The notes beneath the pieces are model-generated. The model did no database searches. It was not told the origin of the DNA and was given only the letters and a program-made list of their open reading frames with translations. A program made the translations under genes and the position numbers. A stretch of 63,886 nt of DNA, filler included, from Aduncisulcus paluster (lineage: Eukaryota): the NCBI GenBank assembly GCA_024181965.1. It is 10 parts of 10 records of this genome, joined end to end, with 100 filler letters (N's around TTAATTAATTAA, not from the genome) between each part and the next. Parts side by side here need not be neighbours in the genome. Positions count along the whole stretch, not along the records: positions 34,711 to 44,738 come from BQXS01000175.1; 9 more parts are not named here. One strand, written 5' to 3'. Shown in pieces: positions 2,285 to 59,247 of the stretch (within the stretch, counting starts at the first letter, position 1; every line of letters begins with the position of its first letter).

Positions 2285-2448
2285 TTGTTATGAATATCAA
2301 TATTTTAATAAAATCTGTGGATTCAACCAAGCAATGCAATCAAAACGGAATTTCCAAAACTATTCTTGGCAGGACTAACACTACTAATATAAAACAATAC
2401 AAATAATGGTTTATAGATATTGATTAAAAATAAACATTCGTTTGATAT

Positions 2449-4461: not shown

Positions 4462-4631
4462 TTTTTGTTATAACAATAAATAAGCTCAACAAATGTAGAT
4501 ATCATTGATTGCTTGGATTTGTCGGTATATTCATCGGTTTTGGCCGATTCATATTGGCGCCTTCAGATATCTGCCGTTTTTTCGCTAAGCTCCAGTTAAC
4601 ATTCATTTGTAAAAGCACAAAATTTGATATA
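4462..4631. promoter_or_regulatory. Putative bidirectional promoter region between CCT6 and centrin
   Basis: Head-to-head start codons about 170 nt apart; promoter function inferred from arrangement only. Confidence 0.5.
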
Positions 4632-5253: not shown

Positions 5254-5633
5254 GAATGTGATATTTTAAAAATGAAAAGGAAAATCGAAACAAATAAATA
5301 ATTATTTTCAACTGTACTCCTTTATTATATTACTTTATAAATCCATCTTTTCACCTTCTCTCCCAGTGCTTAATCTTGTGGCAGGGCTGTAGAACATACC
5401 TTCTTTTGTTTTCCACACAGATACTAATTCTTTTCCTCTTCTTCCACCAAGAGCAACAACAACCTCCCTATGTCCAGCAATAGGACGATTATATTTTCCT
5501 TCAGAGGAAGTCAGAAAGGTCAGAGTTGAAATATTCTGGAATTTAATAAATCTTTCACTATNNNNNNNNNNNNNNNNNNNNAATCGAAACAAATAAATAA
5601 TTATTTTCAACTGTACTCCTTTATTATATTACT

Positions 5634-6314
5634 TTATAAATCCATCTTTTCACCTTCTCTCCCAGTGCTTAATCTTGTGGCAGGGCTGTAGAACATACCT
5701 TCTTTTGTTTTCCACACAGATACTAATTCTTTTCCTCTTCTTCCACCAAGAGCAACAACAACCTCCCTATGTCCAGCAATAGGACGATTATATTTTCCTT
5801 CAGAGGAAGTCAGAAAGGTCAGAGTTGAAATATTCTGGAATTTAATAAATCTTTCACTATGCCACACGTTTTCTTTGCGTTTAACATCTTCTTTGCCACA
5901 AATAACCCTCCATACAGAACCAGTAGGGATGAATTCATTTGAGGCACTTACTTCAGTTTGTTGTGATAATGGGGATAAATAAAAGGATTCAGCTGTTAAA
6001 TAAGTATCTGTCCCCGTATGTTTCATGAAAATTGTATCACCACATGCAACAGGACGACCATACCCGAATGATGATTCAGATGGGAGAATCAGCCATGAAT
6101 TATTTGAGTCATCTTCAAGATTAAATGTTGTAACAACTTGTCTCTTACTACCTGAGGCATAATTAATTGGAGATGAGTGGAGTTTCTCTTTTGTTTGCTG
6201 ATTTTCTAACTGGACAACACTACCATAGGTAACTGCCATTGTATCATCACAAATAACACAAGAAAAAAGAAATGTTATGATACTTAAAGATAAACAAATT
6301 TTAAATAATCTCAT
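5634..6314 (-). CDS. SDF2: Stromal cell-derived factor 2-like MIR-domain ER protein
   Basis: Signal peptide MRLFKICLSLSIITFLFSCVIC, then VTYGSVVQL...LHS..INYASGSKRQVVT, DDSNNSWLI, GRPVACGDTI, SPLSQQTEVSA, YNRPIAGHREV, WKTKEG, all characteristic of SDF2/SDF2L1. Confidence 0.9.
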   Translation of the reverse strand: MRLFKICLSLSIITFLFSCVICDDTMAVTYGSVVQLENQQTKEKLHSSPINYASGSKRQVVTTFNLEDDSNNSWLILPSESSFGYGRPVACGDTIFMKHTGTDTYLTAESFYLSPLSQQTEVSASNEFIPTGSVWRVICGKEDVKRKENVWHSERFIKFQNISTLTFLTSSEGKYNRPIAGHREVVVALGGRRGKELVSVWKTKEGMFYSPATRLSTGREGEKMDL

Positions 6315-6838
6315 CGTTATCACAATCACACCCAAAGAAGAGATTTAAAAAAGGTCTGACATCCAGTAATAATACAAGCTTCATTCTGTTATTTTTTGTT
6401 GATCGATAAGGTGTAAATCACCAAGTTGTTTAAAAGATGGCAATTAATAGGTTTCAATGATGGTCAGTGTTGGGGGATGGATAAGCCGATTTGTAAAAGA
6501 TAAACATGNNNNNNNNNNNNNNNNNNNNTGCTGATTTTCTAACTGGACAACACTACCATAGGTAACTGCCATTGTATCATCACAAATAACACAAGAAAAA
6601 AGAAATGTTATGATACTTAAAGATAAACAAATTTTAAATAATCTCATCGTTATCACAATCACACCCAAAGAAGAGATTTAAAAAAGGTCTGACATCCAGT
6701 AATAATACAAGCTTCATTCTGTTATTTTTTGTTGATCGATAAGGTGTAAATCACCAAGTTGTTTAAAAGATGGCAATTAATAGGTTTCAATGATGGTCAG
6801 TGTTGGGGGATGGATAAGCCGATTTGTAAAAGATAAAC

Positions 6839-9800: not shown

Positions 9801-12110
9801 CTAAGACAGAAACTGCAAGTGAGCCCACCCAATTCACACTGACATTACCAGGATCTTCTATGATATTCACTGAAACTGAAGATANNNNNNNNNNNNNNNN
9901 NNNNAAAGTTAAATATTCCCAGTGAAAGTGAAGGAGACGGTGAGCATGAAGAAGAGGAAGAGGAAGAGGAAGAGGAAGAGGAAGGACATAAGAAGGAAAG
10001 TGTGACGGAAGAAGAAGACTTTGGTGACGAGGCCAATCCGTATGGTGAGGATCAGCCTTATACAAAGTCTAAGACAGAAACTGCAAGTGAGCCCACCCAA
10101 TTCACACTGACATTACCAGGATCTTCTATGATATTCACTGAAACTGAAGATATCTTGATGGATATTGAAGAGGATTCTGAGAATGAGGGAGAGGAAGAAG
10201 AAGAAGAGGAAGAGGAAGAGTCATTCTCCCCGCTGGAAGAAGAGGAAGAGGAGAAAGGAGATGGTGTATTCGCTGCTTTCTCTTTCCCTGAAATAGATGT
10301 GAATGAAGAACATCAAGGAGAGCTGGTTATTGGTGATTATAGTACGAAAGACCTGAGTCTTGCAGACGGATATGATGATGAAGCTCTTCCTTCAACTACG
10401 ACTGCCACTTCATCTCATTTCTCTGATGCTGACTCTGGAGGAAAGGATGATGGACTTAACTTTGATATCCCTGTGGTGGATGTCAAACCATCAGTACCAG
10501 TTGTGCATCCTCCATCTATGGAACTTCCAAAACTATCAATGAATCTTGCTCCTCATATTCCTTCAGCGCTTCCATCTCCTCCTCCTCGTCGTGGGCCCAA
10601 CCTTCTTTGCCCGATGCACCGTGGAAGTGTGTCCGAGTTGCATGAGGCTACAGGTGATGACGGTACTGTTATGTTGATGATCGATGACGACGCCGGCGGT
10701 AGTGTGGAAGATGTGGGTGACGGAGAGATGTCCTGTGCTCAAGAGAATTCCATTTCAATCTCTGATGTTCTGAATACACTTAAATCTCACTCTTCGAAGG
10801 GGACTCCACTCTCGCTTGACCCTCAGCACCTCCAATTGCTCTCTGAGTGTTGTGTCATGGTATTAGTCCGTGTATGTTCAATGGCTGTGAAATGTGCATC
10901 CATGTTTGATGTATATAAGGCTACTTTGCTCAGATGGGGCCAGGAAAGGCAAAGAAGGATGAAATTATCCAGAAGCAGTGAACCTGTTGATAAAAATAGA
11001 ACCAAACTTTCTTCCTCATCTGATATCGGTGTCACTGACTCAGAAGAAGATGAATTCGAACCTTTGATCGACATTCCCAAAGTGTCTGATGATTCCAGAT
11101 TCGTGTGTACGAACTACGTATCTCGAGTTCTTAATCAATTGTGTTCCAAACCCTCATTATCCGACAAAGTTAATATGCATCCAAAATATTACACTGATCT
11201 AAAAATAGAAACTTCTATTTGGGTATGTGAGGGAATTATTGAGAAATGTGTCTCGATGATTGAGGAAGAAAGAGAAATGGTTCGTCTTGAAAGAGAGCAA
11301 AGAGAGGAAGAGATGCGATTGATGCCTCCTCCAAAGTGGCGACGAGTGGAGTGTCAGCCTTCCATGCTTGGTTCCCCACGCTATGGCCAAGGTTCGAGTC
11401 CCTTACATCCTCCCCAAGAGTCTACATCCCCCAAGATGTCTTTATCCATCCCTCCTGGGACTCCATACGTTTCGAGCTATGATAACACAGATGTTCCAGA
11501 TATAACTTCGCTTTCTCCACTGCCGCCGCCCATTCCTTTTGCTCTCTCGCTTTCTCTTGTTTTACATAAGTGCAATTTCATGACACTCTCATTCCTTAAC
11601 ATTTTCTCCCTGTTTGGTGTTGTTTACGGTGGAAAGGCCAACAAACCTGATCCTGCAGCCATTCATGAGGAACCCGACAAGTCTCCTTCATTATCTCATT
11701 CTCAGTCAGATCAGAGCAAGGATCATGTGAGAGTTGAGGAAGATCAAGACTCTTCATATGAGTATGAATCTGTATATGATGATCCTTCCATCAGCGCTCC
11801 GCAGGGACTTGTGGATTCCTTCAATCCTCCGACTCCAGCGGCATTCTCGGCGAGTCATTTCGTCATTCCTTCAACACACGCCATCTCTCGCTATGGTGTT
11901 CGTGTGGCTGAATGGACAGAGAATATTGCTAAGAGAGGAATCGGAATTGGTTCCATTGGATGTGGTGCTAGTTCTTTGTTCTCGGATAAAATAGGGAAAC
12001 TAAGCATATACGAACGATTGTTCGAGGTTCGTCTTGATAGATCGGGTGCTCCTGGTGAGACTATGGTCCAATCAATGACAAAAAGTTCACCCAAAGAAAC
12101 TAACATCACA

Positions 12111-12152
<42 letters not shown>

Positions 12153-15100
12153 GGTGATATGGATTTGGTTTCTGTTGAAGAAAGGAATTTGGTTATCATT
12201 TCATCTTTGATTGGTTCATTTTGTTCGATATCGACCTCCTCTGAGGCATTTTTCAGTTTAATACAGAGTACAATCTCGCATGATGTTTTTGTCTCACATT
12301 TGAAGAAATTCAAGGAAGCTTCAGCCGCTACTGCCCCCCGTGAAACTCTTGCTGCATCATTAAAGGATTATAATAACAAAAACACTCATTTATTCTCCTC
12401 TTTCTTCCTGTCTCTCACTGCTTTCTCATCCTTAGTATCCTTCCTCCCGCTTTTTATGTACTGTCTCCGTGAGTGTGCCTCATGGGAGCGCAGGGAAGGT
12501 GAAGATCCCTCGATTGGCGAGTATAATGAATGCAGCTGGCGAGACTGGTTGAACGAGGAAAGAGATAGAAGGGAATGGGAACTGTGGTGTATGCGGACCA
12601 AAGAAGAAGAGAAGATCAAAAAGGAGAGTGCTGAAGCGGAACGGAGTGCTCAAGCTGAGCAGGCCGGGAAAGCTGAAGAAGATGCCCGTGAACAAACTAT
12701 AGGTGCTGCTTCCAACTGTAATAAGAGTTCTGTTCTGGAAAGTGATGGTGTTGAAACACGATCCAAGGATGAAGATAAGGATGTTATTTTGACTCCTAAT
12801 AGTGGTCAAGGAAAGAGTCCCTCTCACTCACCTTCCCTTGGTCACAGTGGTCTTTCTCTGTCTACAAAGTCCAATGATATAGGAAAGTATTCCCATGGGT
12901 CACATTCTATGTCTTCCTCTCATCTCCACAAACAGCTTGTTTCACTCGTGTCATTCCACCTTGGGCATCTGTTCTCATGTTGTGTATGGGTAAGTGAAAG
13001 AGTAAGGGAGAAAGAGAGGTGTGCTTCAGCAGGCGGATCTCAAGGTAAGAAGGCAGAAGAAGAAGATCCTGTTCATGATGGCAATGGTGATGATAAAACG
13101 AAAGTTAACACTGGTGGGTGTTCATCTCCTAAAGTTATGGATGAAGAAGAAGATATTTATGGCTCATCAAAGTGTACGGATGAACATTCAAAATCGGTCA
13201 TGTCTCCTTGCAATATGATGGCTCAAGAACTCTCACCTCTTTTTTCTTCTCATTCGCCTCGTCATTTCTCTCTTCTCCCTCTCCTCGACTTTGTCTATGG
13301 ATTGTACTTTGTCTGTGTTGGCGTTGTAATAGAGGGGGTGGAAGGAAGGGAACGTAGAGTGGCCGCTGCTCATTTTGATGGGCTTGCCCACAGTGAACCT
13401 ATTAGAAAGGGAAGCTTTCCCCCTTCATCTCCACTGTTTTCTGCTTCATTCTCGTCCACATCTTCCGCTATTTCTTCGAATTCATATCTGCGTCATGCTC
13501 TGACACTCCCTTCACTGACAAGGACTATCTCCTCATCACTGAGTATGCTTCTGCATCTTGGATGTGGGTCTGTATCTGTTGCTTCTGTGCTCATGTCTCA
13601 CGTGTTTCGTTTCTCATTGCGTCATCCGTTCCATTTTTCGAAGCCTGAGCAGAAAGATAGTAATGATAGTCGTGAGGATGCTCTTCTTGATGATGAAGGC
13701 CTCCATATCTTATCCAACCTCTTCTGCAATCCGCTTCTTTCTGAGGGACTTATCCGATGCATGTGTACAGTAATGAATAGAACATCTATGTTCACAATCC
13801 CAGGTGGAAAGCATCCAGGTCTTGTCAATCTCAAAGGCTCAATTATTGCTCCAACCAGTGAGGCTACATCCTTTGTTCCACCTTCAAGTCCGTCCAAAAC
13901 ACAGTCAATTGAAAGATGTGGATCCCTTTCACAACTTCACTGTCGGAATCCCTTTGTTCTTCCTTTCTCTCGCTGTGAACTTATCCATCTATTTGCTCTT
14001 TTCCTGCACTCCATATCGCCTCGATGCATTGGTCTAATGCTGGAAAGGTTTAGTTATTTCCACACATCTATTCCCTTTGTATCATTATCGCATTCAATGT
14101 CACTTCCACATGCTCTTCTCAGTGTTGGTCTTAGATCTATGTGTTCAAATGAACAAATAATGATGATGAAAGACGAATGTACCTGTGGTAATTGTCAGTC
14201 AAAAGGGATGCCCAAGCCAAGACATGGAAGTATTGCCTGTAATTCTATTGGGAAGCAAGCTATATGCAATGGGACTGAAAGAAGTGTGTGTACTTTGCAA
14301 ATGATGGGACAATTATCTGAGCATTATGGAGTTCAAGCATACAGAGAACTTGATTGTTTGGCTGAAAGGCCAGGAGATTCATCGATTCATCCGCTTGTGT
14401 TCTTCTCATCGTGTTCCCACTCTCATAAAACATCAGATATCACACCGTTCACATTGACACCGTATTCCCTCGTGAGAATACCTTCTATCTCTCCGGGTAA
14501 ATTCCCTCATTGGACTTATTCTGTGCCGGCATGTCTTGAAATTGATCCATCTCGTTCGTTTTCACTCACTTTGAAATTATTCCCATTGTTTTGTCCCTGT
14601 ATTCGGCAGCAGACCCTTGAATTGATGTGTAATTATGTGTGTGGAGATGTTTTCGAAGGATATTGTGCTATTCGTAAAGGAAGAGACAAGCAGAAAGCTA
14701 GACTTCGTGAGAAACACTCTAGAAGGGGAAGTGGTGCTTATAGTTCACGCAGTGCTCGAAGCTCTAGGAGTGCTCGTAGTGCTGGGAGAAGTGCTAGACG
14801 TATGAGTAATCCAATCGCTGGACTGAATGCACTTGATGTTGACTCAGAATCTCCTCTATGTTCCCTCTCCAATTGTCTCTCCCTCCTGTCTCTATCACAT
14901 TTCTCGCACACTTTGTCTCACATCCTTGTCCTGTCTTCTACCTTCCTCGTGCGTCTCTTTGAGATGTGTGAAGAATGCTGGAAAGAGAAAAAGATTCTTG
15001 ATTCTGGTGCAGCTTCTGTATCTGACACCAGTCGAGAGGCTCAGCCAGGGTCGAAGGATGATGAAGGTGACGAACTCCACATCCCTGCAGTCGATCTTTC

Positions 15101-30300: not shown

Positions 30301-30608
30301 AGAGAATTCCTTCCGGTCCTGGCACTGCTAAAAGGCAACGGAGGAGAAGAGGAGCCATTCCTATTGAAAACAGTGCTTTTGAGTCATCTAGGACTGGAAC
30401 AGCCGAGGGTATGGAGAGAGTTGTATCTGCACAAAGTTCAGGTTCTCAACAACCTCATCCAAGAGCTTCAAAATGGAATGTTGTCCGAAGCTTGTTTTCC
30501 TCAAAGCTTGGACAAACTCCTGTTATCTCAAGTACAAAGAATAAGTCTGCTATCGTTGATGTCGAAGATAGTGAAGAGAGTGTCGTTAGTCCCATTGCTT
30601 TCGGGTAA
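24316..30608 (+). CDS. Large multi-pass membrane protein: signal peptide, Ser-rich ectodomain, Cys-rich juxtamembrane region, multiple TM helices (about 2,020 aa after collapsing the overlap)
   Basis: 25736 onward duplicates 25512-25715 and joins in frame. Motifs CSFCDSGYY, CIACPDHVQCFGG..VDEGWW, CDGGSEGILCATC and C-terminal VQPYNRARYN resemble widespread protist Cys-rich 7TM-like proteins. Confidence 0.8.
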
Positions 30609-31436
30609 TATTAGAAAGTGCTTCTTATTACAATAGTACAATATAAATCGAAATTCAGATCTTGATTATGTTTCATCTGATTCTTTCAAAGATTAATTTA
30701 CTTTTTTTTTATCTATTTTGTCTATTTTTTGCATCTACCAGATAGGTTGCAATCCAGAATAGTTACTTTGTTATCATGAAAGAATGATTCCTTTGTGTCC
30801 TTTTTTTACAGTTTTTATTCATCTCTTAAATCTATTTTTTGTATTATTAAGATAATAATCTCATTATTCGATTNNNNNNNNNNNNNNNNNNNNAATATTA
30901 GAAAGTGCTTCTTATTACAATAGTACAATATAAATCGAAATTCAGATCTTGATTATGTTTCATCTGATTCTTTCAAAGATTAATTTACTTTTTTTTTATC
31001 TATTTTGTCTATTTTTTGCATCTACCAGATAGGTTGCAATCCAGAATAGTTACTTTGTTATCATGAAAGAATGATTCCTTTGTGTCCTTTTTTTACAGTT
31101 TTTATTCATCTCTTAAATCTATTTTTTGTATTATTAAGATAATAATCTCATTATTCGATTTTATTCAGAACAATTTCCTCTGAACGATCACCTTTTGTCT
31201 GAGCTCAATCTTCCTCATGAAATATTTTTACGTACGTTCTAATTGCAATATTTTGAGGAGACATTTTTTTCGATGCCGTTTTTTATTAGCATGTTCTTAT
31301 CAAATAATATTTGATAATATTTGACAAATATTATCATCGATAGTATCGATAGTCTTCGAAGACTCTTCGAGTAAATTCGATTTTACAGCTATAAAGTAAG
31401 GAAATAGCTTGAAAAGTTTTGTGGTCGCTCAAAACG

Positions 31437-34710: not shown

Positions 34711-36731
34711 GAGAAAGAGATGTGAATGATGATATATTACGGTTTAATGGCCGACGTCCAGGAAGTTGAGTTGTGTGTGGTCGAGCAGGTAACATATTCC
34801 CTTCCCTATCGTACTGAATCCGAGCACTACCAACATGACGACCAGACACAAATGAAGATGGATCATCTGTATCCGTGACTGAAGATACTTCATGTCTTCG
34901 ACTGCTCGTCATGGATGTGCTTGGCATGGATGTTGAGGGAAGATGTGGTGAGAAACGTCCCTTGTTTCTATGATTACCTTCCACCAACATCAGATGAGAA
35001 TGGGCAAGAGGGGCAGAGGATCGAAGGTCCACAAATGGAGATGGTTTAAACGTCGAAGGGATAAGCATGGATTGTATCATGGCACCATCGGGTGTGTTGG
35101 GTGGGAAAGCAGTAATTGTATCCATAATCCCCTGTCGTTGTCTTGCAAGGGCCCTCTTACGTTCTTCTGAGGCTCCAGATATACTATTAAAACGACCACT
35201 GCCTCCACCAACACTTTCTACACCTCTTCTACGACAATGGAGGGCAGGGGAACGGGATTTTGGAATGCCGGAAGAAGCCAGTCTGGCCGCTTGAATATGT
35301 CCATGTTCTGGCGTTTGCAAACGAGAATACTGATCTGTTGTTTCTCTTCTTCTTCCCAGATCCATGGATCTCCTTGTTCGAGCTTGAGATGTGGCTGGAC
35401 GACCATGAGTAGCACTACTTCTTGAATTACTTGTAGTAGAAAGGGAGGAAGGAGGGATACTAAAATACTGTTTACGACGGAGAATTTCATCAGTAGCCGG
35501 TGATTTAGCACTATCTCTACGTATAGATTGAAATGTAGGACGGAAAACTCCACCACTGACACCAGATAGTGCCATTCCAGAGCTCTCATATACTGTACCA
35601 TCATATCCAAAATGTTTAGTACAGTATAGCTCAGGTCTTTGTTGTTGACATCGATGAGTATGTTGATGTTCAGGAACGTCTCGTGGTACATCAATGGTCG
35701 GCGATGCTGGAATATAATGGTCCATCTGTTCCCCATAGATTGGTGGAGGAAACTCTGGTTCCTGTTCATCCATAATTACCCTATCTCTGAATTGATAACT
35801 TCTATCATCCAAAAACATATCCATTCCTCGGTCTTCTCGGTCCTTATCACCACTGNNNNNNNNNNNNNNNNNNNNTCAGGAACGTCTCGTGGTACATCAA
35901 TGGTCGGCGATGCTGGAATATAATGGTCCATCTGTTCCCCATAGATTGGTGGAGGAAACTCTGGTTCCTGTTCATCCATAATTACCCTATCTCTGAATTG
36001 ATAACTTCTATCATCCAAAAACATATCCATTCCTCGGTCTTCTCGGTCCTTATCACCACTGGGATTACTGTGGGGTCTGGGACCAGGAATTCCAGCAAAC
36101 TCATTCTTTTGGTCAAACTCATTATGTTGTTCAAAATCATCAATGGTAGGCAGCCTATCAGGAGGTACTGGGCCATATTGTCCAGTTTCTAAATAAATTG
36201 ACAAATTCTTTCGAGGTTTCAGAGGGGCTTGTTCACCATGGAGACCAGTGACAACGGGGAAGTCAATACCATGCTGAAGCCGATCAATATCAACCGATCT
36301 ATGATCAAATATATCATATAATTCCGAATCTACAACTCTACGATTTCGGTGAGATCTTGAACCTGGATCCACAGTCCAAGGTCTATCGGGGTTTTTTGAA
36401 GCTTTGGATGAAATAATTTTTGCAGTTTTCGGCGAAATTTGTTTATATCTTTCAAATTTTCTTGCTATTTCTAAAGCTTCCCTATCTTTTGGTGACTGAA
36501 GCTCAATCTCCTGATTATGTCTTTTTCTTACTTTGTTTCTATTTTTTCGTGCATATTCTTTCCGAGCTAACGCAATGGTAATTCTTCTCGCAGAAGCTCT
36601 ATTTATATTTCAAGTATATTTCGAAAATGTTAATAAACATGGGATTCAGTTTTTAAATTACAGATTTAATTTATAAAAACATACGTATCAAAGGGAATTG
36701 AAGAAAAAAGAGAGGCCTTTTGAGTCTTCAT
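34711..36731 (-). CDS. Hypothetical Ser/Arg/Pro-rich, probably disordered protein; exon 1 36731-36685, intron 36684-36599, 3'-partial
   Basis: MKTQKASLFSSIPFD-T-ASARRITIALARKE... joins across an 86-nt GTATGT...AAATAG intron, runs in frame into ORF 35776-36372 and, after collapsing the 20-N overlap, into ORF 34655-35824. Confidence 0.75.
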
Positions 36732-37904
36732 TCCGTTTCTTAGCAAGAAAACCCTCCCAGACCAAATATCTCAGAATAACCCTCATTCTTGAGTGGAAAA
36801 CCCACCAATTTTAAAAATAAATCATAGCTAGATTCCCCAATTTTTCATATTTTACTGGATAATTATAACAATTACTAATTGTAGTACAAAATTTGAAATT
36901 CCAGTCGGCTTTCTTATACAAATCGGATGAATAGCAAATAAATAAAATTAACATTTTAAAATTATAAGAGTGGGGTCAATAGGAACTCTTTCTTACGTCA
37001 CCTACACCTATATGTCCCACTATCTTCCAAACTCCGCTAGGAGATAAATAAAGCGTGATTTCCATGGTATCAATTCGGCAATAATCCCACGGTCGAAGAA
37101 ATAATTGTTCAATTGCAATAATTTCGTACGGCATTGAAAAAAAAAAAAAAGATTTGAAAAATAATACAAAATGTTTGCACTCCTTATCCCCAATAAAAAA
37201 AAATATGAATGCTCCAGAAAACTGCCTAATTATGATATTATTGACGATTTTCCATGTGGAGCACACAATCTAGACGATTTTCTTTCATATCGGATCTTAC
37301 TATAGAAATTTACCAATAACAATGGTTATTCGTATGGGATTCGAGCTTTACCACTGGTTATTGAGAGAAAAACGGATTAAAATAAATCACTGATAAATTT
37401 ATATACGTTCTGACATTTCAACGTTGAAAAAAGCGTTATCGATCCAATAATATAATATATCTTCAATATATCACCCATGCATGAACTTTTTTTAAAGGTC
37501 AGTTGAGCAATGTCATTTGTGAACTCGGACAATATAACCAATATACTGAGTGAGATCTCGATTATATCTATCATGTTAAATATGAAGAGTTCAGTGCATT
37601 TAAACCTGTTCAAGCCCACTTTAGATGATAATTAATGGAATTAATTTCATAGAAATATTCGGATTCTCAACCAAAACGGGACAATTGGAGATGGATTTGG
37701 ACAGACTTTCAGCCACCAATGATACAATGTATTGACGAAAAATTAATTGGACATATTTTATTGATATTATATTTTAACAAAACAATTATCAATTAGTTTC
37801 TTCATTTTATCCGGTGTCCATAGTTTTATCGACTGATTTAGACTATCTCGTTAGGGAACATGGTAATATCGAATTAAATAAAATTCTCACAATATAATTT
37901 CATA

Positions 37905-40900
37905 ATGCTAGGATTTTCCCCCGATAGAATTTCCACTCATATCATTTATGACTTTGATATTTTACTCAAGCGCATTTGTCCACGATATATGGATATAAAA
38001 AGAAAATTTATTCCCAAAAAGATTTCAATCAACATGTTTTTCACTTTAAATCCTCCTTATTTCTGGGCAAACATTCTTTCATCAAATATTTCTCACTTAA
38101 TTCATCCTTCCTGGACAAACTCGTCCAAATTTTCCTGGTTTCTTGTATCAATATGGTTTTCTGTGTTATTGGTTATTCCAAATTTTCCCAATTTTATGTG
38201 GTCAAGTGCTTCTTTAACTTCTTCAATTTCAGAGCCTCAAATTGGTGGTGGTTGGTGCCAAGATGAGATATTTGGAATTTCCGGAGATAATCAAAATATT
38301 TCTGAAAACTTTCCTTGCCTCTCCACTTTCTCTTCCTGGTTTATTGCTCCCATTGATGAAAATATCAATGATCCTCGAAGTTCTACATCTTTAACACAAA
38401 ATAGCGACAATATATCGACTTTTAAAGATGTTTTGTCTTATGACTATTTCTCCTATTCCTCTACCCCTGTGTCTGATACCAGTATTGAGGTTTCCATCAA
38501 TAACACCCCTTTTGCATGCCATACTTCTGGTTTTACTACAAACCTATCTGTTGATAAAGCTTTATTTCCGCATCAATATTCAACGCATGATGAGGGTATC
38601 TATCATCAACATTCTTTATTACCACAACCTCTTCGTGGCCTTCTCCTTCTCTCCTTTCTTCTTTTCCTTGTTGCTGCTCTCTCCATCACTCTTGTTGTCA
38701 TTGGTCTGGTCGTTAGAATGAGGTCTTCTATTCCCACCATCCTCATCTTCTTGGTTGTTCTGAGTCTGTCCTTCCAGTCTGTCCTTTGTGATGGATATTT
38801 GTCCAATGAATGTTCCATGTATATCTCTGAAGACGACCATTTGGAGTGCAATGAGGTATATCCTGGTCGTTATGCAGCCGAGTGTGAGGATGGGTATTAT
38901 TATGACCAAGGTGAGTATTCTTGTGTTGAGGATACCAATACTGACTGTCCCAGTGATATGAATGATAATCAAATGTGTGTCAAAACAGCAGATGGTGATG
39001 TTATTACATCTGATTGTCGATCTGCCTGGTATGGTGACGATTGTAACCAGTTATATTCCGTGCATATCCCTGATACATTGTTCAGAGGTAAAGTATGTGA
39101 TGCTATAAGCAATAGTGATCCACTATGTGACGTGTCAGAGTTTGAAATGGCTGCGATAAGTGGAATTTTTTACTCATATAGTTCCCATATTACAACCTTT
39201 GAAGGTGCTCAGTATTTGATAAACATTTATTATTTCTATGGACCAAATACAGATGTAACATCAGTTTATCCTATTTCATTTCTTGAACAACTATCTCGCT
39301 TATATTTTCATCAGACTTCAACTACCTATAATGGCAATATTTATGATCTCAATTCCTTGTTCACATTGAATAGATTGTATAGATTGCATATTTATGGGAA
39401 TGAACAAATCTATGATATATCTGTCTCATTTAGGAATGTTGGATTGTATTATATGGTTATTGCGTATACATATTATTCTGCGTTCATACCTCTCTGTAGA
39501 TCAGAAGATGATAACGATTATTGGACATTTATAACGACTGTCTTTCCAATTCATGAGTCAACCAATAAGGATAAATTCTATATTCCAAATAGTTGTGCTT
39601 TGAACAATGTGGATGATTATGTATGTGACTCAGAAACATATCCAACGCAATGCCCTTCAATAGTTCTGAATGAGGTGTACAACAGTGTTGATGGTGTGAA
39701 CGAGAAACAATGTGCATTCATTGCGAAGGAAGGGAGCAGCGGTGAGTGTTACACTGTTCATGATGATTCAATTCGACAATATCTGAAGGATCATTGTCTC
39801 TCCACGAGTAATGTTGAATCAAATGGTGTCATCACTGTTGCCACTATGAGGAATGATTTGACATGTACTTCATTGTCGCTTCCTTCCATTGCCACAGATA
39901 GGGGGATATCTTTGAATTCCATCACGACTCTGCAAGGTCTTGAATATGCCACTTCATTGACCTCTCTGACCCTTGATGGGTATGACTTGAGTGGAGATAT
40001 TAATTCCAATGCTGAGTATGATAAGTTGGTTGTTCAGATCTTGGCAAAGGCTGTGACATATACGAATGATTATGGTTCCATTGATTCTGGTCTGAGGATA
40101 TTATCTGCAAGTGGATGTGGATTGAGTGCTATCAGTGATGTGCTTGACTTGACTCCTATTGCTTCTGGAGATTCAAAGACAGACCAATTCAAACTGACAT
40201 CCCTAGATCTCTCAAACAACTCCATCTCTGATGTATCTGTTCTCGTCACAGAATCGATATTCCCTGATGATACTGATGTTGTTCTCACAACTCTTGACAT
40301 CAGTGGCAACTCCATCTGTGATATTGATGGGATGGTCGATGAGTTAGAAACATATTTTGCATCATCTTCAATCTCGATCACTTCATCGGACCAAACATGC
40401 CATTGTTCTGCATCTGTGTCTTCTGCAGCTCACCAAGTGTGCCGTGAAGTGTATCCCGATCGTTGGGCTGTCGAGTGCTGGAATGGGTACTATCTTGACA
40501 AAGCCAGTGGAGAGTGTCTTGAGGTATGTGCGAGTGGGTCTGAGCTTGATTCTCCAAATGGAACCCCGCCATATTCATGCATAACAGCTGCTTCAGATGT
40601 TGACGATTCCATTCGTGTCCAAGTATGTGAAAGAAATCCCAATATGATGGCTGTTCTTGAAGTTAGTGCTTCATCCATTACATGTGGGTGTACTTATGGT
40701 TTGCATGGAGAAGACTGCTCAAGTGAGTGTCCAATTGTTGGAGGTGAAGTATGTTCTGGTCATGGAAGTTGTAACACCACCGATCATGTGTGTGAGTGTG
40801 ACACTTGGTATGATGGTGCTTCATGCTCCACCCTTGTTCCGATATACTCCGCTGAATGTGATCGTACATTCAATATTGATGATCATTTGGAGTGCAATGA

Positions 40901-43900
40901 GGTATATCCTGGTCGTTATGCAGCCGAGTGTGAGGATGGGTATTATTATGACCAAGGTGAGTATTCTTGTGTTGAGGATACCAATACTGACTGTCCCAGT
41001 GATATGAATGATAATCAAATGTGTGTCAAAACAGCAGATGGTGATGTTATTACATCTGATTGTCGATCTGCCTGGTATGGTGACGATTGTAACCAGTTAT
41101 ATTCCGTGCATATCCCTGATACATTGTTCAGAGGTAAAGTATGTGATGCTATAAGCAATAGTGATCCACTATGTGACGTGTCAGAGTTTGAAATGTCTGC
41201 GATAAGTGGAATTTTTTACTCGTATGAATTACACGTTACATCTTTTAAAGGGGCTGAGTATTTGATCAATATATATTATTTTCAGGGGAGAAACACAGAT
41301 ATATCTTCAATTGAATCGCTTTCAGTCCCCCGTCAAATTGCCCAATTGTTAATTTATCGGTCAGATAACGATTATCAGATGGATATTTATAATCTTAACT
41401 CTATATATATACTGAATAGGTTATATGTGTCATTTATTTATGGAAATGAACGTGTCTTCGATATTTCTGTATTTTTCAGGAATATTGGGATGGAAGCCTT
41501 AGTTATTGGCAACAATAATGATCCATCTTCTCCATTCTTTATACCTCTCTGTAGATCAGAAAATGATACCGATTATTGGACATTTATAACAACTGTATTT
41601 CCAATTCATTCCTCAAACAATAAGGATAATGTTTTTATTCCCAATAGTTGTTCTTTGAACAATGTGGATGATTATGTATGTGACTCAGAAACTTATCCAA
41701 CGCAATGTCCTTCAATCGTTCTGAATGAGGTATACAACAATGTGGATGGTGTGAATGAGAAACAATGTGCATTCATTGCGAAGGAAGGGAGCAGTGGTGA
41801 GTGTTACACTGTTCATGACGATTCAATTCGACAATATCTGAATGATCATTGTCTTTCCAGTAGTAATGTTGAATCAAATGGTGTCATCAGTGTTGCCACC
41901 ATGAGGAGTGTTTTGTCATGTCCATTGGATACTAATAGTAATGAGTCATTGTCACTTCCAGACATAGCTTCTGCAGCTTCCTTAAGTTCTGTGAATTCCA
42001 TCACGACTCTGCAAGGTCTTGAGTATGCCACTTCACTGACCTCTCTGAGCCTTGATGGGTATGACTTGAGTGGAGATATTAATTCCAATGCTGAGTATGA
42101 TAAGTTGGTTGTTCAGATCTTGGCAAAGGCTGTTACATATGGATCCATTGATTCTGGTCTGAGGATATTATCTGCGAGTGGATGTGGATTGAGTGCTATC
42201 AGTGATGTGCTTGACTTGACTCCCATTGCTTCTGGAGACTCAACCACAGACAAGTTCAAACTGATATCCCTAGATCTCTCAAACAACTCAATCTCTGATG
42301 TATCTGTTCTCATCACATCATCTATCTTCCCAAATAATTTCCTCGCAACTCTTGACATCAGTGATAACTCCATCTGTGACATTGATAATATCGTAACGAT
42401 GCTACAAACTCACTTCACAAACACTAACTTCACAATCAATGCAACAAATCAATCCACATGTCCATGTTCTGAAGGCGTTGATGTATCATTTTCTTCTCAC
42501 AAGACGTGTCGCCAACGCTCTGATGGCGATTACCAAGTCGAGTGCTGGAATGGGTATTATTTAGATAAAGAAACAAATTCATGTGTTGAAGCTGTTACCT
42601 CTGAAGATTCTATTCGTTGTCAAGTATGTGAGAGGAAAGATTTTGTTGTTCCAATTCTTGATATTGGCGCATCAGATGTATTATGTGGATGTTCATTTGG
42701 TTTCCATGGTGATTCATGTGAATACGTTGACATTCCCGACTCCAACCTTCGAAGTGCTTTGTGTCTGGCTGTTACCAATCCAAGTGCTCACGATTCCTCC
42801 TGTGATGATTTAACTATTGCAGATATGGCTACTGTGACTTCTGTGAGTGCTTCAACTGTGGACTCCTTTGAAGGTCTTCAACATGCTGTGAACCTCACAT
42901 CTTTATCCATCTCTGGCACTTCATCTAGTTCTGTGTCCATTGGGAATACTGATCTTGCATACCTTCCTTTGTCATTAACTGATTTAACTCTTGAGGCTGT
43001 CTATCTTGATGCTGATAGTGATTTCACATCATTTACAAATCTTACAACACTCTCTTTGAAGAACAATTCTTCGTATGATTTGACAAATTCTGCTCTTTTC
43101 CCATCTACATCAACCTTCACATCTCTTGATGTTAGTTACACTGCATTGTCCTCTTTCTCTTCTATTCCAACCTCAATCACGACCTTGACTGTAAACAACT
43201 GTTTCTCACTGACGAGTTTCTCAACCATCTCCAATCTCACGAATCTTGTCTCTCTTGATGTGAGTTATGCCTCAAATGTGTCAGACTTTTCTTCTTTGCT
43301 ATCTAATATTCCACTTACAATATCTATTCTCTATGCCGATGGATGTAATGTTGCTGCCAATACTAATTTTTCAACATTTTCAAATCTTTCAGTGCTTTCA
43401 CTTAAAAACAATTCTTTATTTGACTTGACTAATGCTGATTTATTGCCAACATCATCTTTATTTAAAATTGATGTCAGTTATACTGCACTCTCAACTTTCT
43501 CTTTCATTCCAGCTTCCATAAATGAGATATTCGCTGATGGTTGTGATGTGTCAGCGAGTACTGATTTCACTTCATTTACAGCTCTCACAACACTTTCTCT
43601 AAATGACAATCCATCATTCGATATCACTGAGTTTGGTCTTTTCCCATCACCATCATCTCTCACTTCTTTCAGTGCTAACAACACTTCAATCTCTCTGTTG
43701 TTTCATCTTGTTGCTAGCATGCCCAATCTGACTGAGCTATCTCTGAACAACAATAATATCTCTGATCCTTCCCCATTGTATGCTTTGTCCAGCAATGATA
43801 ATTCTTGGAGTAGCATTGACTTGTCATATAATCATATCTGTGGTGGTGATAATGGTGATTCTGAGGTTCAGACTTTCCTTGCATCTAAATTTTCTCTTTC

Positions 43901-44738
43901 TACTGCAGATGTGAATGCTAGTGGTCAAGCCTGTGAATGTTCCTCTGATGATCTTGGATCGACTCCAATTACTGACAACAAGGTCTGTAGTGAAACCAAA
44001 CCTGGGTCTGGTTCATGGTATGTTGTATGTGCCAGTGATTCATTCACTTCATACACATCTGCTGAGGACTTTACATGCACTCAACCAGATTCATCCTCAG
44101 CCACAAACTGTTCTGGAGGGTGTGAGTATGGGTATGAGTGTCGAAATGATCCAGATTTAGAATCAATATCGTGTCAACAAGTGACAGTTGATGATTATCT
44201 TCATGCATGTGTTGCCAGTATGTTTGTGGATGAGGATGGAAATCCTGATTATCGTCATCGAACAGATTCCACGCCTTCCCTTTTCAGCGTGGCTTCCTTG
44301 AAGACCCTTGAGTCAGCTCTGGATACTGGTACCGATGAGTATTCCCCCATTCTCTCATGCTCCAACTCTACTTCGCCCATCAGTGTTTTATCTGGTCTTG
44401 AGCATCTTGTTGGTATTTCAGAGTTTCAATTGAGCAATGACGGTCTCACCGATACCTCCGAGCTATCATCTCTCTCGACTTTGACACTCCTCAAGAGATT
44501 GGATCTGTCAAGCAATTCCTCGTTGTCGTCTCTTCCCGATCTATCCGATGTTTCCCTTGCCATTCTCAATATTAATGCGACATCCATTGTTTTACCTGAC
44601 ACATCCGCCTCCACTCAGCTAATCCCTGACTCTTTGGTCGAATTGCATATGTACGACACTCCTACTGTCCAAGCAGGGTTTGACACTCAGGTCGGTTCGA
44701 GTCACCTTAGTGGTTTGAAGATGATTGATCTTGGAAAC
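37905..44738 (+). CDS. Large internalin-like LRR / Cys-rich (EGF-like) surface protein with tandem duplicated modules (3'-partial; alternative start at 38718)
   Basis: LRRs (LTSLDLSNNSISDVS, LQGLEYATSLTSLTL), internalin-like caps (IPDTLFRGKVC, IPDSNLRSALC), EGF repeat CSGHGSC...CECDTWYDGASC, and signal-like MRSSIPTILIFLVVLSLSFQSVLC. Confidence 0.9.
38838..42400 (+). repeat. Intragenic tandem duplication, period 2,046 nt (682 codons)
   Basis: 38838-39175 matches 40884-41221 with one substitution seen; high identity resumes at 39486/41541. Confidence 0.92.
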
Positions 44739-44838: not shown

Positions 44839-46352
44839 CTCACGGCTTCATCGCCGTTGGTGGCATAGCGTAATCTGAATGGAGTATCTTTTAGGAAGAA
44901 GCCCAGCAACATTCGGTTGTTTTCCGAATCTTCCACCACAAGGATACGTAGAGGCTTAAGTTCTACGGAAGAGTCACGATTATCGGCATCAATGGAAGAT
45001 TTACCATAAATACCGAGCATTGCCTTCCGCAATCCCCCACGGGTCACCGGACAGTGCACACTTCCTTTAACACCGAAGAGATTATTTATTTCAGGACTGT
45101 TGCTACTAACTCCAGGCGAAGAGGAAAGAGTACACAACACAGGGTTTTCACAGTTGAGGCGTGCTTTAATGGACTCAATTTCACTCAATCCATCTTCTTC
45201 GCCAAGCAGGTCCGAAACAATTACCAGCTCGGCATTACTGCGGCAGGACTCATTCTGCACACAGGCAAAATTCAAATCACCTGATGCCATGCAATGCGCT
45301 CCCCATTCCCGCAGACATTTACATATATAATCCCGAACCTGACCTCGCTCATCAATAACCAGAACCTGACGGTCCTTCATTACATCCTTGATAAGGGCTG
45401 AATCTTCTTCAATTTCATCAATACTGCCAAGCTCAATATCGGTGCGGAACTCAGCTCCTCCGGATGCCACATTGCGAACATCGATATGCCCGTTCATAAG
45501 TTCCACAAGGTTACGGGTGATAGACAACCCGAGCCCTGTTCCACCGTATTTACGGGTTGTGGAAGAATCAGCCTGCACAAAATTTTCAAAAATATCTTTG
45601 AATTTTTCCTCTGAAATACCAATCCCGCTATCCCGTACAACCATATTAAGCACAGTTTTTCCCTGCTGACCGGACGAGGAAGAAATCTCCAGCACAACTG
45701 AGCCGGAATCAGTAAACTTAATGGCATTACTAAGCAGGTTAACCAGAATCTGTTTTATCCTTGTCGGATCACCCTCAAAAAAGGCAGGACAAAATGGATC
45801 AACATGACAGGCAAAAATAAGGTTCTTTTTCCAAGCACTTACGGACATGATGCCTGCGACTTCATCCACAAGGTCATCAATATTAAACTTGGTATGTTCA
45901 AGTGTAAGCTTACCGGATTCGATCTTGGACAGGTCAAGGATATCATTGATTAAATTAAGCAACGCCTTTCCTGAATCTCTGAAAATCGAAACATAACTTC
46001 TTTGTTCAGAGGTCAGTCTGGTATCGGTAAGCATATCAGCCATGCCCAGAATTGAATTCATAGGTGTCCGTATTTCATGGCTCATCTGGGCTAAAAATTC
46101 ACTTTTAGTGCGGTTGGCAACTTCCGCTTTGGTCATAGCCTCCTCAAGTTTCTTGAGGGTATCAGCCATATGTGCGGAGTTGCGCTCCTCAATTTCTTTG
46201 GCTTTCAGCAATTCAGCGGCGTAATGCTGCAACTCTTCTTCATCCCGTTTACGATCAGTCACATCACGAACAACACTAAGCAGGACATCCTGTCCATGAT
46301 AGGAAATTTTCCGGGAACGTACATCTGTATAGACAATCTCACCGGACTTAGT
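44839..46352 (-). CDS. Bacterial hybrid sensor histidine kinase (PAC-HisKA-HATPase-degenerate REC-REC), partial at both ends
   Basis: H-box [17 protein letters not shown]-box [15 protein letters not shown]1 DSGIGI, G2 [22 protein letters not shown]. Upstream PAC end ...[12 protein letters not shown] is open to the contig edge. Confidence 0.95.
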
Positions 46353-55352: not shown

Positions 55353-55452
55353 NNNNNNNNNNNNNNNNNNNNNNNNNNNNNNNNNNNNNNNNNNNNTTAA
55401 TTAATTAANNNNNNNNNNNNNNNNNNNNNNNNNNNNNNNNNNNNNNNNNNNN

Positions 55453-58400
55453 ATTCCAGCCAGATCACTGACATTTGCATCAGAACATGAAAGGACAGGA
55501 GTGTCGTCAAAACCAGTCACAAGGGTCTTCAGGGAAGCAACACTGAAGAGAACTGGCGAAACAGTATCGTCAGCATGGTCAGAATTGGCTTCAAACAGAT
55601 CCTCAACACATGAATGCAAGGCATCATCTGCAATGACTTCAACACAATGCCCCGAAGTGGAAGAGTCAGACAAAGACCGACATTCATAACCATAAGCACA
55701 TCCACCAATACAATTGTTAGAGCTCGCAGTTGCACGCACGCATGAAATGGAAGATGCACTGGAATAAGTTGTGAACGAATCGCTCGCACAAACAGCAAAC
55801 CAGGTGTTGGACCCTGATTTGGTCTGGGTACAAACAATGTTCTCAGCGAGTGCATGTGCAGTGTCAAAGGGATCACACAGACAATCCTGGGAGTCACATA
55901 TAACAGTGGCAGATGTGCCAAGGTTGGCAAGGAAGTGGGATGCAAGATCCGCAGATGACAATTCACAAATATTGTTCGAGGTGAGATCAAGGTCAGCGAG
56001 TGTATCCGACAGTGCGTACAGTGGAGATGGATCACCAATGGAATTGGACACGAGTGAAAGAACCTCCAAGGGAAGAGCAGTTAGATGAATCAGATCATAG
56101 TCGTCAATCCCACATGAGTCAGCATATAACTCAGTCAACTGAGTATTATTCGATAACCAAGACAAATCAGAAATACCCGTTGAGTTGATATTTAAGGTAG
56201 TTAACTCAACAAAAGAATCGAAAAGAACACTGCGATCAGTAACTCCACTCAAATCACAGTTATGCATGTCCAGGGACTCCAATGTACTTGCTTGATCAAT
56301 AACAGGAGAAAGGGAAGTAATATTGGTCGCAGACACATTCAATTCAGTCAAAGAGGAAGACTGAGACAAGGTTGGTAAAGACGACACAAGAGAACATCCA
56401 GATATATCAAGGACTATAATGTTCGTATAACTTGAGAAAAGACTGACATCAGATAAATTTGTATGATTTGTCAGAATTACTTCCTTTACATCGATATGCT
56501 CAAGACCTTCGACGGTTGTGATAGAGGTGCTGGCTCCATCAAGAGATATGATGGCATTAGAGAAATCAATGCTCTTCAAAGAAGCCACACTAAACACAGG
56601 GACGGCATCTGAAGACTTGTCGGAAGTCAATATAATTCCAGATTCGAGAGCAACATAACTCCTGAGGGTGCTATCGACAATAACACTCTTACATTCTCCA
56701 GCTGTTGAACCAATGTCACTTCTAAGCCGACATTCTTGACCATATTCACATCCTCCAGAACAATTTGTGGTCGAATGCGATGCTTTGACACATGTCATGT
56801 TTCGTGACGCATCGTACAGTGCATATGAATCGCTCGCACATACAACGTACCACGATTCTGAACCTGGAATTGTTTCAAGACAGACCTTGTTGCTGGACAA
56901 GGCTGTAGAAGCGATTGCAGAGCATTNNNNNNNNNNNNNNNNNNNNGCAACATAACTCCTGAGGGTGCTATCGACAATAACACTCTTACATTCTCCAGCT
57001 GTTGAACCAATGTCACTTCTAAGCCGACATTCTTGACCATATTCACATCCTCCAGAACAATTTGTGGTCGAATGCGATGCTTTGACACATGTCATGTTTC
57101 GTGACGCATCGTACAGTGCATATGAATCGCTCGCACATACAACGTACCACGATTCTGAACCTGGAATTGTTTCAAGACAGACCTTGTTGCTGGACAAGGC
57201 TGTAGAAGCGATTGCAGAGCATTCACATGAGTTAGAGGAGGTATCAATAGTTCCAGATGATAAAATAGAATCCAAACCGGACCCACATATCATATTGTCA
57301 GAGAGATCGAGATCAGAAAGTTCAGAAAGATCGTAGAGTGGAGATGGGTCAGAAATATAATTACCAGAGAGGTCAAGAGTGACTATATTGGGGGTATCTT
57401 GAACTAGATAATGAAGCAAATGAATTCCCGAACTGTTGAGACTTAGTGACGTCAAAGATGCAGGTAAAATACCGGTTTGGGAATACCCAAACGAGTCATT
57501 CCCCGATATTGAGAGGATAGATAAGGATGAAAATGATGAAAAATCGGCGTTTTCGGCGAGACCAACATTATTGGCTGTAATAGATGTGAGATACGAGGGA
57601 AGGATAGAAGGCGAGGTCATAGAAATTCCACTGATATCCAGAGTCCTTAGAGAGTTGGGGAAACTAGCCACTGAGGGAGCAAAGGATGCGTTATTAGCGG
57701 CCAAGAGCGTTGTTAAGACCGTGAAAGAAGAAAAAGAAGCCGTAGAGAAAAGATTAACGTTATTTAAACTAAAATAATTAATAGATAGAGGCAAATAAGA
57801 AAGATTGGTTGCTCCAGGAGGAGTAGATGTGGATGAAAGGTCGTTATTGTCCAATGAAACACTCGTGAGATTGTTCAGATCAGATAAGAAAACCAAATCA
57901 TACGTAACTCCCGGTGAAAAAGAAGGCCTACTCAAGTTAATAGACGTGAGATTTGGGGCGTATTGAAGACCTCGGAGGCTTGAAATGTTCGTTTGAGAGG
58001 AGAGATCGAGAGTAGTCAGATTTTCCAACTCATAAAAAGGAACATGACCATCAGTACACGTAACAGAGCCAAGAGAACAAATATATGATTCGAGATCAGA
58101 GTCTGTAAACTTTACGTACTGACAAACATCGCCAAGGAAGTCGTCTTTGCACACACAGACGTGATTGGTTGAATCACACGAATCTCCACGAGCACTGGAG
58201 ATACTACAGGTATCTTCACTTCCATTGCTTGAAGTGAATACGGGGCATGTGGAATTACACTGAATTCCCCAATAGTTGGTGTCGCATAGACAATCGTCAG
58301 GATTAACACAAGAACCATAGTTACATTGGCTATCACCAATAGTGCCATAACAGATTGGAGAACAGGTATTATCTGTCGTAGATGGAAAATCATAACCAGA

Positions 58401-58892
58401 ATCACATGAATATGTCACATATTCAACGTCGATGGTCATCCAAGAAGTTCGCCAATGACGAAGAATAGTAATTTCATTATAATCAAAATCTACCTTAATA
58501 TAGATATTATTTTCAGTTAAATCGTCAAGATCTGTTATTTCAATCACGTCTGTGAAATAGGAATCCTCAAGATCGTAGGTGTTAGTTAGAAGAGTCTGAT
58601 TAATTTTTGTCCCACCATTTTCAGTATATACTTTCAACTTGACTGTCCAGTTATCGCTGTCATAACTACCTTGATTAAACTTAATTGTAAGTTTGGAATA
58701 CTTTTGATGATCCCCGAGAGATACTCCCAGTGTACCATCATACATGTCGTGATTACCAGAGTAATACCCATTACCAGATGTAAAACACGTTTGCAGATGT
58801 GTATTATATGTTTCAGAACGATTTTCAATAGAAATAACCATTGAAAATTGGAAAACCAACAATATTAAGAAAAAACAATGAATTAGATACAT
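55453..58892 (-). CDS. LRR / EGF-like Cys-rich secreted or surface protein, paralogue of 37905-44738 (3'-partial)
   Basis: Signal peptide, EGF repeats, LRRs (LRGLQYAPNLTSINL, ISDPSPLY), and the shared family module NKVC.ET.PGS.SWYVVCASDS...NCSGGCEYG.ECR...FSVASLK. Confidence 0.9.
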
Positions 58893-59247
58893 TGGTTGGT
58901 TATTTAAGAGAAACTACGTTTTAAATAATAAATATTTAATATAAAAAAACAATGAAACTATCGTAATTCGGGAGAAACCTTCATTCTTCCATTCTGGGTC
59001 GTAATTGACAGATATTATCTGAACTATAATTCTCAATATAAATTAAATATTTTTATTCGCTGAATTTTATTTTATTATCCCATTTATATTCATGTATTCG
59101 TGATATGAAGCAATCAATCACAATGATGATATCAGAAACAGGTAATAGGTATTTTGTATCTATTTTTGTCCATTTCTGTTTGTCACTAACAATATTTCGT
59201 CGTAAAATAGGAACAAAATACTCATTTGATTGCCCTTATGTGATTCC

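Follow-up and report, generated by a model that had tools for sequence, protein, structure and literature searches.

The window analysed here is a 63,886-nucleotide (nt) stretch from the genome of the fornicate protist Aduncisulcus paluster (assembly GCA_024181965.1). It is a chain of assembly contigs separated by spacers of 44N+TTAATTAATTAA+44N, with gaps of 20 N inside contigs. The gene in question encodes a leucine-rich repeat (LRR) and cysteine-rich surface protein, and lies on a contig of 10,028 nt (34711-44738; BQXS01000175.1) bounded by such spacers. Its open reading frame (ORF) runs on the plus strand from 38718 to 44738, starts with a hydrophobic, signal-like segment (MRSSIPT) and covers 2007 amino acids (aa) before the contig end truncates it at the 3′ side. 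In the standard code the frame is open from 37878 to the end of the contig; the ciliate code was also tried for the region and gave no improvement. Two modules lie in direct repeat at a spacing of 2046 nt (38832-39131 and 40878-41177 are 99% identical). Module 1 (38832-40877, plus strand) encodes 682 aa, arranged as a Cys-rich N-terminal part, a first LRR domain (LRR-1, here called the cassette), a Cys-rich linker, a second LRR domain (LRR-2) and a Cys-rich tail similar to epidermal growth factor (EGF) domains. Module 2 (40878-42719, plus strand) has the same domain order without the long EGF-like insertion of module 1, and the two are 70% identical by tblastn over 643 columns. The C-terminal region (42732-44738, plus strand) contains canonical Leu-based LRRs with Cys-rich spacers up to the contig end. 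A Pfam scan of the whole protein returned LRR_4 (E=2.2e-18), with LRR_EndoS slightly under the cut-off. The best LRR_4 stretch covers residues 1647-1687 and is one of three matched by the whole-protein query.

The public NCBI model of this gene, P0006, which belongs to a contig of likewise 10,028 nt, starts at 38196. Ahead of MRSSIPT the frame stays open over 38196-38717 (plus strand), a part that contains a second hydrophobic stretch (LLLLSFLLFLVAALSITLVVIGLVV). Similar stretches stand before the signal-like segment in the paralogues P0011 and P0016. Because of the open upstream frame and this second stretch, the true start and the N-terminal topology of the gene are uncertain.

The two modules were compared codon by codon, with Fisher tests between blocks, and their divergence was found to change abruptly along the frame. 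The 5′ flank of module 1 contains a tract of 312 nt (38838-39149, plus strand) in which no position differs from its counterpart in module 2 (40884-41195, plus strand) and the proportion of nonsynonymous differences (pN) is 0. Over 38832-39149 there are 2 differences in 318 nt (at 38834 and 38837), giving a proportion of synonymous differences (pS) of 0.033. The first difference past the tract is at 39150, and the next run of differences begins at 39176. Within the cassette of module 1 (cassette 1, of the commonest type, referred to as type A; 39150-39485, plus strand) 121 of 336 nt differ, with pS saturated at 0.657 and pN at 0.280. Its counterpart, cassette 2 (41196-41540, plus strand), is of a unique type and three codons longer, and this 9-nt indel shifts the module spacing from 2046 to 2055. 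The 3′ flank, a Cys-rich linker with the motifs IPLCRSE...CPSIVLNEVYN...CYTVHDD (39486-39821, plus strand), is again similar at 92% identity (27/336 nt differ; pS 0.206, pN 0.049). It is followed by a second divergent patch with indels (39822-39911, plus strand; 25/90 nt, pS 0.367, pN 0.247) and by the LRR-2 domain (39912-40289, plus strand), which is 93% identical (26/357 nt; pS 0.152, pN 0.047) and is the highest-copy segment of the family. The divergent tail and EGF-like Cys-rich region of module 1 occupies 40290-40877 (plus strand); in its part at 40290-40720, 139 of 363 nt differ (pS 0.622, pN 0.318). The cassette differs from the 3′ flank with p=4.6e-19 over all sites and p=7e-8 over synonymous sites, and the 5′ flank differs from the 3′ flank with p=1.3e-6.

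The module pair is thus a mosaic of at least three age classes of synonymous divergence within one reading frame. Protein-level selection alone cannot give such a mosaic. A first-pass annotation of the window had described two near-identical modules that part sharply at one hypervariable LRR cassette with a three-codon indel, framed by the motifs CDVSEFEM and IPLCRSE. The indel was confirmed and the motifs are present in both modules (CDVSEFEM at 39126 and 41172; IPLCRSE at 39486 and 41541). The abrupt parting after the identical tract also stands for this pair, but identity beyond the cassette returns only to about 92-93%. The cassette is not the one divergent block, as the patch at 39822-39911 and the tail at 40290-40720 are equally divergent. 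No further cassette copy was found in the window by tblastn with both cassettes, which gave weak chance matches only (E>=0.84).

Further searches placed the gene in an A. paluster protein family that is very large and lineage-specific and whose members would be secreted or anchored as type I membrane proteins, in agreement with its initial assignment to a protist. A word-based search with residues 100-420 returned 24 proteins of 1103-3513 aa, all named as A. paluster. HMMER against 1.84 billion representative proteins gave 103 clusters at E<=1e-3 and 57 at E<=1e-30. Ten HMMER matches were looked up: the seven that were named, in the middle of the range, all belonged to A. paluster, and the three weak ones were unnamed proteins in ENA. 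A transmembrane segment followed by a short tail was seen in the family members P0038 and P0054. LRR_5, the mark of BspA-like proteins, was absent from the Pfam scan of the gene, in which LRR_4 and LRR_EndoS were found. Across the 24 proteins the Pfam accessions are PF12799, PF00560, PF13516, PF13855, PF23952, PF25019, PF23598 and PF00069; we take none of these to be LRR_5, PF12799 and PF23952 being LRR_4 and LRR_EndoS as named in the scan itself.

Several members were observed to carry public annotations that do not fit them. P0001, P0002, P0004, P0005, P0009, P0017 and P0019 are secreted Cys-rich LRR proteins with names such as 'Acidic leucine-rich nuclear phosphoprotein 32 like protein', 'Tubulin-specific chaperone E like' and 'Small heat shock protein RTM2-like'; the names appear to have been carried over from generic LRR similarity. 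P0024 carries a protein-kinase domain (PF00069), and some family members may therefore be receptor kinases. Another contig of the window holds a second member of the broader LRR/Cys-rich/EGF-like family (55401-58913, minus strand) without a Tyr-rich cassette. Its C-terminal 'KVC.ET.PGS..W.VVCASDS' region also occurs in the gene with the two modules, and tblastn matches it weakly to module 1 (E=8.7e-5).

The first-pass annotation had proposed that cassettes be extracted through their conserved anchors and that flank and cassette trees be compared. Extraction was carried out on protein models: 118 proteins were searched by motif and yielded 47 anchors of the CDVSEFEM type, all of which lie inside module context. 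The paralogue sequences are without exception protein models predicted on the one MaSuRCA assembly, which was built from Illumina reads alone. Thirty-two complete segments were aligned, of which six were set aside with the cassette missing or much shorter (in five it was spliced out by the gene model), and 26 were kept. Column entropy in these 26 peaks at about 39165-39485, at 1.5-2.5 bits per 10-residue block, with conserved scaffold motifs within this interval. The interval 39561-39650 is also variable, so that the boundary that is sharp in the window pair is graded family-wide, and other parts of the module vary as well. Mean pairwise identity over the 325 pairs is 0.67 in the 5′ flank, 0.41 in the cassette and 0.59 in the 3′ flank. 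Among the ten pairs whose 5′ flanks are at least 90% identical, seven have cassettes only 25-51% identical, and type-A cassettes that are 70-92% alike occur in flanks that are 71-100% alike. Eight segments carry a type-A cassette resembling cassette 1, and their monophyly is rejected by the flank data (approximately unbiased (AU) test, p=0.011; delta lnL 64.6). The flank clade of P0005_595, P0029_350, P0031_194 and P0005_1152 is not rejected by the cassette data (p=0.67). Judged from these alignments, the history of the flanks and that of the cassettes are decoupled in the family as a whole, and this is best read as recombination or gene conversion among segments that diverged long ago. The proposal that long-diverged cassettes had been exchanged is upheld to that extent, but the dedicated swapping system that had been imagined behind it is not supported.

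The cassette itself is predicted to be a coding, internalin-like LRR domain between Cys-containing caps. An AlphaFold2 model of module 1 (682 residues, alignment of 24 family sequences) reached a mean predicted local distance difference test (pLDDT) score of 83.5 and a predicted template modelling (TM) score of 0.80. Its cassette part, at a pLDDT of ~86-93, has five short strands alternating with short helices. The strands (E110-114, 131-136, 156-158, 184-186 and 207-209) are spaced at ~21-28 residues. This predicted structure agrees with the short, internalin-like class of the LRR superfamily, in which tandem repeats of ~20-29 residues with an LxxLxLxxN-type core form a solenoid with a parallel beta-sheet on its concave face. 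A separate model of the cassette-2 subdomain (172 residues) has a pLDDT of 89.7, and its best PDB match is the LRR of InlB (1d0b; TM score 0.68, root-mean-square deviation 1.9 Å, 134 columns, E=2e-7). For the whole-module model too, the best PDB matches are Listeria internalins. The models thus agree with the claim that the cassettes keep an LRR scaffold and differ at intervening positions, which are exposed in the model. Cassettes in the clade of the window are rich in Tyr, Phe and Ile, with 18 tyrosines among the 113 residues of cassette 1 and 11 of 113 in cassette 2; distant family members carry ordinary Leu-based LRRs at this position. Within type A, 23 positions vary strongly, and 16 of them belong to the strand zone of 43 out of 113 residues (permutation p=0.0019). 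These are alternate residues of each strand and would form the concave face in the model, where variation had been expected; the result covers type A only. The cassette is probably the ligand-binding LRR, with a concave face that may be under diversifying selection.

Logan contigs of two sequencing runs, X1 (DNA) and X2, were placed on 39100-41650 with a likeness of >=85%. The two runs share one sample and are possibly the very data behind the assembly, and X2 is RNA by guess only. Summed contig depth is not copy number, and contigs break at every branch and drop rare variants. X1 gave 2,478 DNA contigs on 2.55 kb, with up to 42 distinct contigs carrying an alternative letter at one site. The flanks, LRR-2 and the cassette-1 type have summed depths of 70,000-640,000, with a peak of 637,660 in LRR-2. 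The depth of the cassette-1 type (124,000-242,000) shows no excess over that of the flanks (71,000-235,000). Cassette 2 is represented by one exact DNA contig of 466 nt (41198-41650) at a depth of 1,149, and its bins sum to 1,149-3,183. No variant of it was seen among the contigs over 41250-41421, contigs being prone to drop rare variants. In X2, one exact contig of 395 nt crosses the whole of cassette 2 at a depth of 5.6. On the basis of the X1 contig counts, variant contigs and summed depths, dozens to hundreds of related modules are indicated, with cassette 1 of a common type and cassette 2 unique. At 41091, 41123 and 41177 the window has minority letters at a depth of ~3,800-13,300, or ~3-12 times the single-copy value of 1,149 (at 41091, ~4,500 of 199,035), as would be expected if a few copies truly share this flank haplotype. 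One contig present in both runs links the 5′ flank at 39164 to downstream cassette-2 sequence at 41243 through 32 other letters. It matches a different, P0011-like cassette start ('YFYADEPMVS'), and the joint is another paralogue with the same flanks, not a deletion.

The explanation we favour, and hold to be probable but well short of certain, is ordinary germline segmental gene conversion or unequal crossing-over in a very large modular LRR family, together with diversification of a binding face. The family would be built of tandem modules of ~680 aa, each with a Cys-rich cap, a short internalin-like LRR (the cassette), a Cys-rich linker, a second LRR and a Cys-rich/EGF-like tail. The two modules of the window would be an old tandem duplicate in which the cassette, the tail and the small patch retain their saturated synonymous divergence, and germline gene conversion or unequal crossing-over would later have homogenised the blocks in between. 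This would take two or more events of different age, one leaving a synonymous divergence (dS) of ~0.15-0.2 over the linker and LRR-2 and one a dS of 0 over the 312-nt 5′ tract. Alternatively, another paralogue may have supplied module 1 with its copy of the very abundant type-A cassette. Under the favoured explanation gene conversion, acting on tandem as well as dispersed modules, would be the cause of the mosaic. LRR-1 would either retain its old divergence or move as one block, and its concave face would diversify as in other diversified LRR receptors. The family is therefore most likely a germline-encoded repertoire for recognition or adhesion, perhaps of prey bacteria or surfaces.

Several results weigh against this explanation. 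The cassette data alone are compatible with a sister relationship of the two window cassettes (AU p=0.36), the cassette tree is poorly resolved with 1 of 23 branches starred, and the type-A group was defined after the sequences had been inspected. The overall pN/pS of the cassette between the two window modules is 0.43, which is no demonstration of positive selection. X1 contigs contain only 0.60 of the words sampled from the stretch, and at some cassette-1 sites (for example 39296) the window's letter occurs in no placed DNA contig; its absence at sites such as 39296 and 40178 was not used as evidence, since contigs drop minority variants. Logan contigs cannot span the identical tract, so the linkage and the exact identity of the 312 nt are unconfirmed by reads, and chimeric or consensus assembly paths through the high-copy flanks could give rise to the 100% tract and the mosaicism of the family, or overstate them. 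Taken to its conclusion, this last point is an alternative in its own right: both modules would have been threaded through the same collapsed or consensus flank path, the contig would possibly be chimeric, and the sharp boundary would merely mark where the unique sequence of cassette 2 begins. The assembly invites such a reading, being made by MaSuRCA from Illumina-only 150-bp paired reads with ~500-bp inserts into 25,863 contigs, with an N50 of 4.6 kb and a BUSCO score of 40% (PMC9933649). The incomplete word count fits it too, as do the exact duplicates that flank gaps in the window, which are typical of mis-joined ends. Flank depth of 70,000-640,000 stands against 1,149 for cassette 2, and the two contigs that carry cassette 2, a DNA unitig and one in X2, have the same start at 41198, where the repeat ends. 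However, a repeat of 312 nt is within the range of 500-bp read pairs, and the flank letters of the window at the three sites named above are minority variants rather than the family consensus. Moreover, the 3′ flank keeps its 27 real differences, and the contrast in divergence between cassette and flank holds whatever the linkage. An assembly artefact, which the first-pass annotation had itself listed as refuting in the form of collapsed flanks, is considered unlikely on the short-read data, though it is the rival to be taken most seriously.

The public model P0006 treats most of each cassette as an intron (39212-39499, 288 nt, and 41258-41554, 297 nt; both plus strand with in-frame GT..AG ends), from which it could follow that LRR-1 is spliced from some or all transcripts as a true in-frame intron or exitron. 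The two cuts are at homologous sites, the models P0026, P0018, P0014, P0001 and P0009 likewise remove all or part of a cassette, and the cassettes are AT-rich (GC 0.29 in cassette 1 and 0.32 in cassette 2, against 0.35-0.41 in the flanks). The predictor also had RNA evidence at its disposal, as the models were made by BRAKER2 with TopHat RNA hints (PMC9933649). Nevertheless, both predicted introns are open in frame (96 and 99 codons), their boundaries vary among paralogues, and the cassettes are homologous to canonical LRRs of distant members and are confidently predicted to fold as LRRs. The exact X2 contig retains the cassette-2 'intron', and none of the 15 joints listed, of 32 in total, matches a predicted intron, all 15 being found in the DNA run as well. 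Genuine cassette introns are hence very improbable. The annotated introns are probably prediction artefacts driven by AT-rich composition, as four points argue: the frames are open, the cassettes have homologues among canonical LRRs, the LRR fold is predicted with confidence, and an X2 contig crosses cassette 2.

A programmed or mitotic exchange of cassettes would make this a system of clonal receptor or coat variation, either by assembly as in variable lymphocyte receptors (VLRs) or by antigenic variation of the vlsE, pilE or variant surface glycoprotein (VSG) type. It could account for conserved anchors around a variable LRR, for type-A cassettes in different flank contexts and for the size of the family. 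The genomic evidence points the other way. Both cassettes lie in one uninterrupted genomic ORF. Cassette 2 is covered by one exact unitig at the depth of a single copy, and over 41250-41421 the contigs, which drop rare variants, show no variant of it. The depth of the cassette-1 type does not rise above that of the flanks, so an excess of cap-less donors is not seen, and all 47 anchors found in the protein models sit in module context. The first-pass analogy with VLRs and antigenic variation is accordingly not supported, and exchange of this kind is regarded as very improbable. Hardly better placed is a broader version in which cassettes act as exchangeable specificity elements, with conversion among hundreds of modules during clonal growth, frequent enough to yield new receptor combinations in a culture, and optional in-frame cassette splicing as a further source of variation; we judge it very improbable. 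If it were true, a free-living bacterivorous metamonad would have a unicellular diversification resembling that of VLRs or antigenic variation. Targeted hypermutation of the cassette, as by a diversity-generating retroelement (DGR) or activation-induced cytidine deaminase (AID), was rejected and is scarcely credible. It would explain variation confined between conserved flanks, but synonymous sites are saturated, which had already been used as an argument against point hypermutation and holds as such. In addition, the substitutions are of all 12 types and show no bias for adenine or for C/G (34 of the 121 from A, 40 from T, 27 from C and 20 from G), the cassettes differ by a three-codon indel, and cassette types are common to different genes.

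Comparison with known systems helps to place the family. The best structural matches to the predicted cassette are the Listeria internalins (InlB, InlA, InlF and InlH), including the helical N-cap and the short repeats of ~22-28 residues. Sequence identity to them is only 13-21% and the host is a eukaryote, so no homology-based membership is claimed. Moreover, the LRR here lies between Cys-rich caps and EGF-like regions, and its core Leu is partly replaced by Tyr, Phe or Ile in the clade of the window. The germline VLR genes of lampreys and hagfish are incomplete, and somatic assembly from cap-less donor cassettes completes them. The family resembles them in outcome only, in having a variable LRR concave face between conserved Cys-containing caps and, on the favoured explanation, a diversity that comes from the copying of LRR segments. 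Unlike germline VLR genes, the genomic ORF here is complete, with both cassettes already in frame, and no donor excess appears in contig depth. In plant LRR clusters, gene conversion and unequal crossing-over produce mosaics of paralogues, and variation is concentrated at the solvent-exposed xxLxLxx positions. The present family shares the mosaic structure of a large paralogous family and the variation at exposed positions. It differs from the plant clusters in that no NB-ARC domain is present, whole modules are in tandem within one ORF, the host is unicellular and free-living, and positive selection lacks demonstration. Such clusters are known among plant resistance genes of the nucleotide-binding LRR (NLR) and receptor-like protein (RLP) classes, including RPP8 and the coffee SH3 cluster (PMC6771003; PMC3113787). 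Among related protists, expanded LRR or Cys-rich surface families are represented by the BspA-like LRR proteins of Trichomonas and Trepomonas and by the variant-specific surface proteins (VSPs) and cysteine-rich membrane proteins (CRMPs) of Giardia and Spironucleus. The A. paluster family differs in being of LRR_4/internalin-like and not LRR_5 type, and in combining LRR and Cys-rich parts in tandem modules. BspA-like LRR_5 proteins in Trepomonas and 18 CRMPs in A. paluster are reported in one study (PMC11437800).

Some further features of the window were noted. The contig at 34711-44738 has one internal 20-N gap (35856-35875) with an exact 186-nt duplicate on each side. Gaps of this kind at 35670-36061, 1210-1791 and 30606-31176 sit between exact or near-exact direct duplicates, which measure 186 nt at 100% identity in the first case and have a 301-nt period around the gap at 1491-1510 in the second. 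The gap-side duplicates look like unmerged overlapping contig ends, and the exact duplications of peptides inside the public models P0001, P0003, P0005 and P0007 are probably the same kind of artefact. Next to the contig of interest in the window is a contig of 1.5 kb (44839-46352, minus strand) that is nearly all one ORF, whose translation, judged by eye, reads like a hybrid sensor kinase with PAS, histidine-kinase and receiver parts. It could be contamination from food bacteria or a transferred gene.

The modular LRR family is undescribed in the main text of the genome report (PMC9933649) and in the LRR passages of a further study (PMC11437800). On the practical side, the public gene models remove the binding domain from several members, many members of the family are named after a nuclear phosphoprotein, and the short-read assembly has collapsed most of the family. 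If the favoured explanation holds, A. paluster has a previously undescribed, very large modular family of LRR surface proteins, with diversifying binding faces and an exchange of segments between modules, that would be a candidate germline repertoire for recognition of prey, surfaces or symbionts. As a free-living relative of Giardia, A. paluster would then be useful for the study of how surface-protein families expanded before parasitism in Fornicata.

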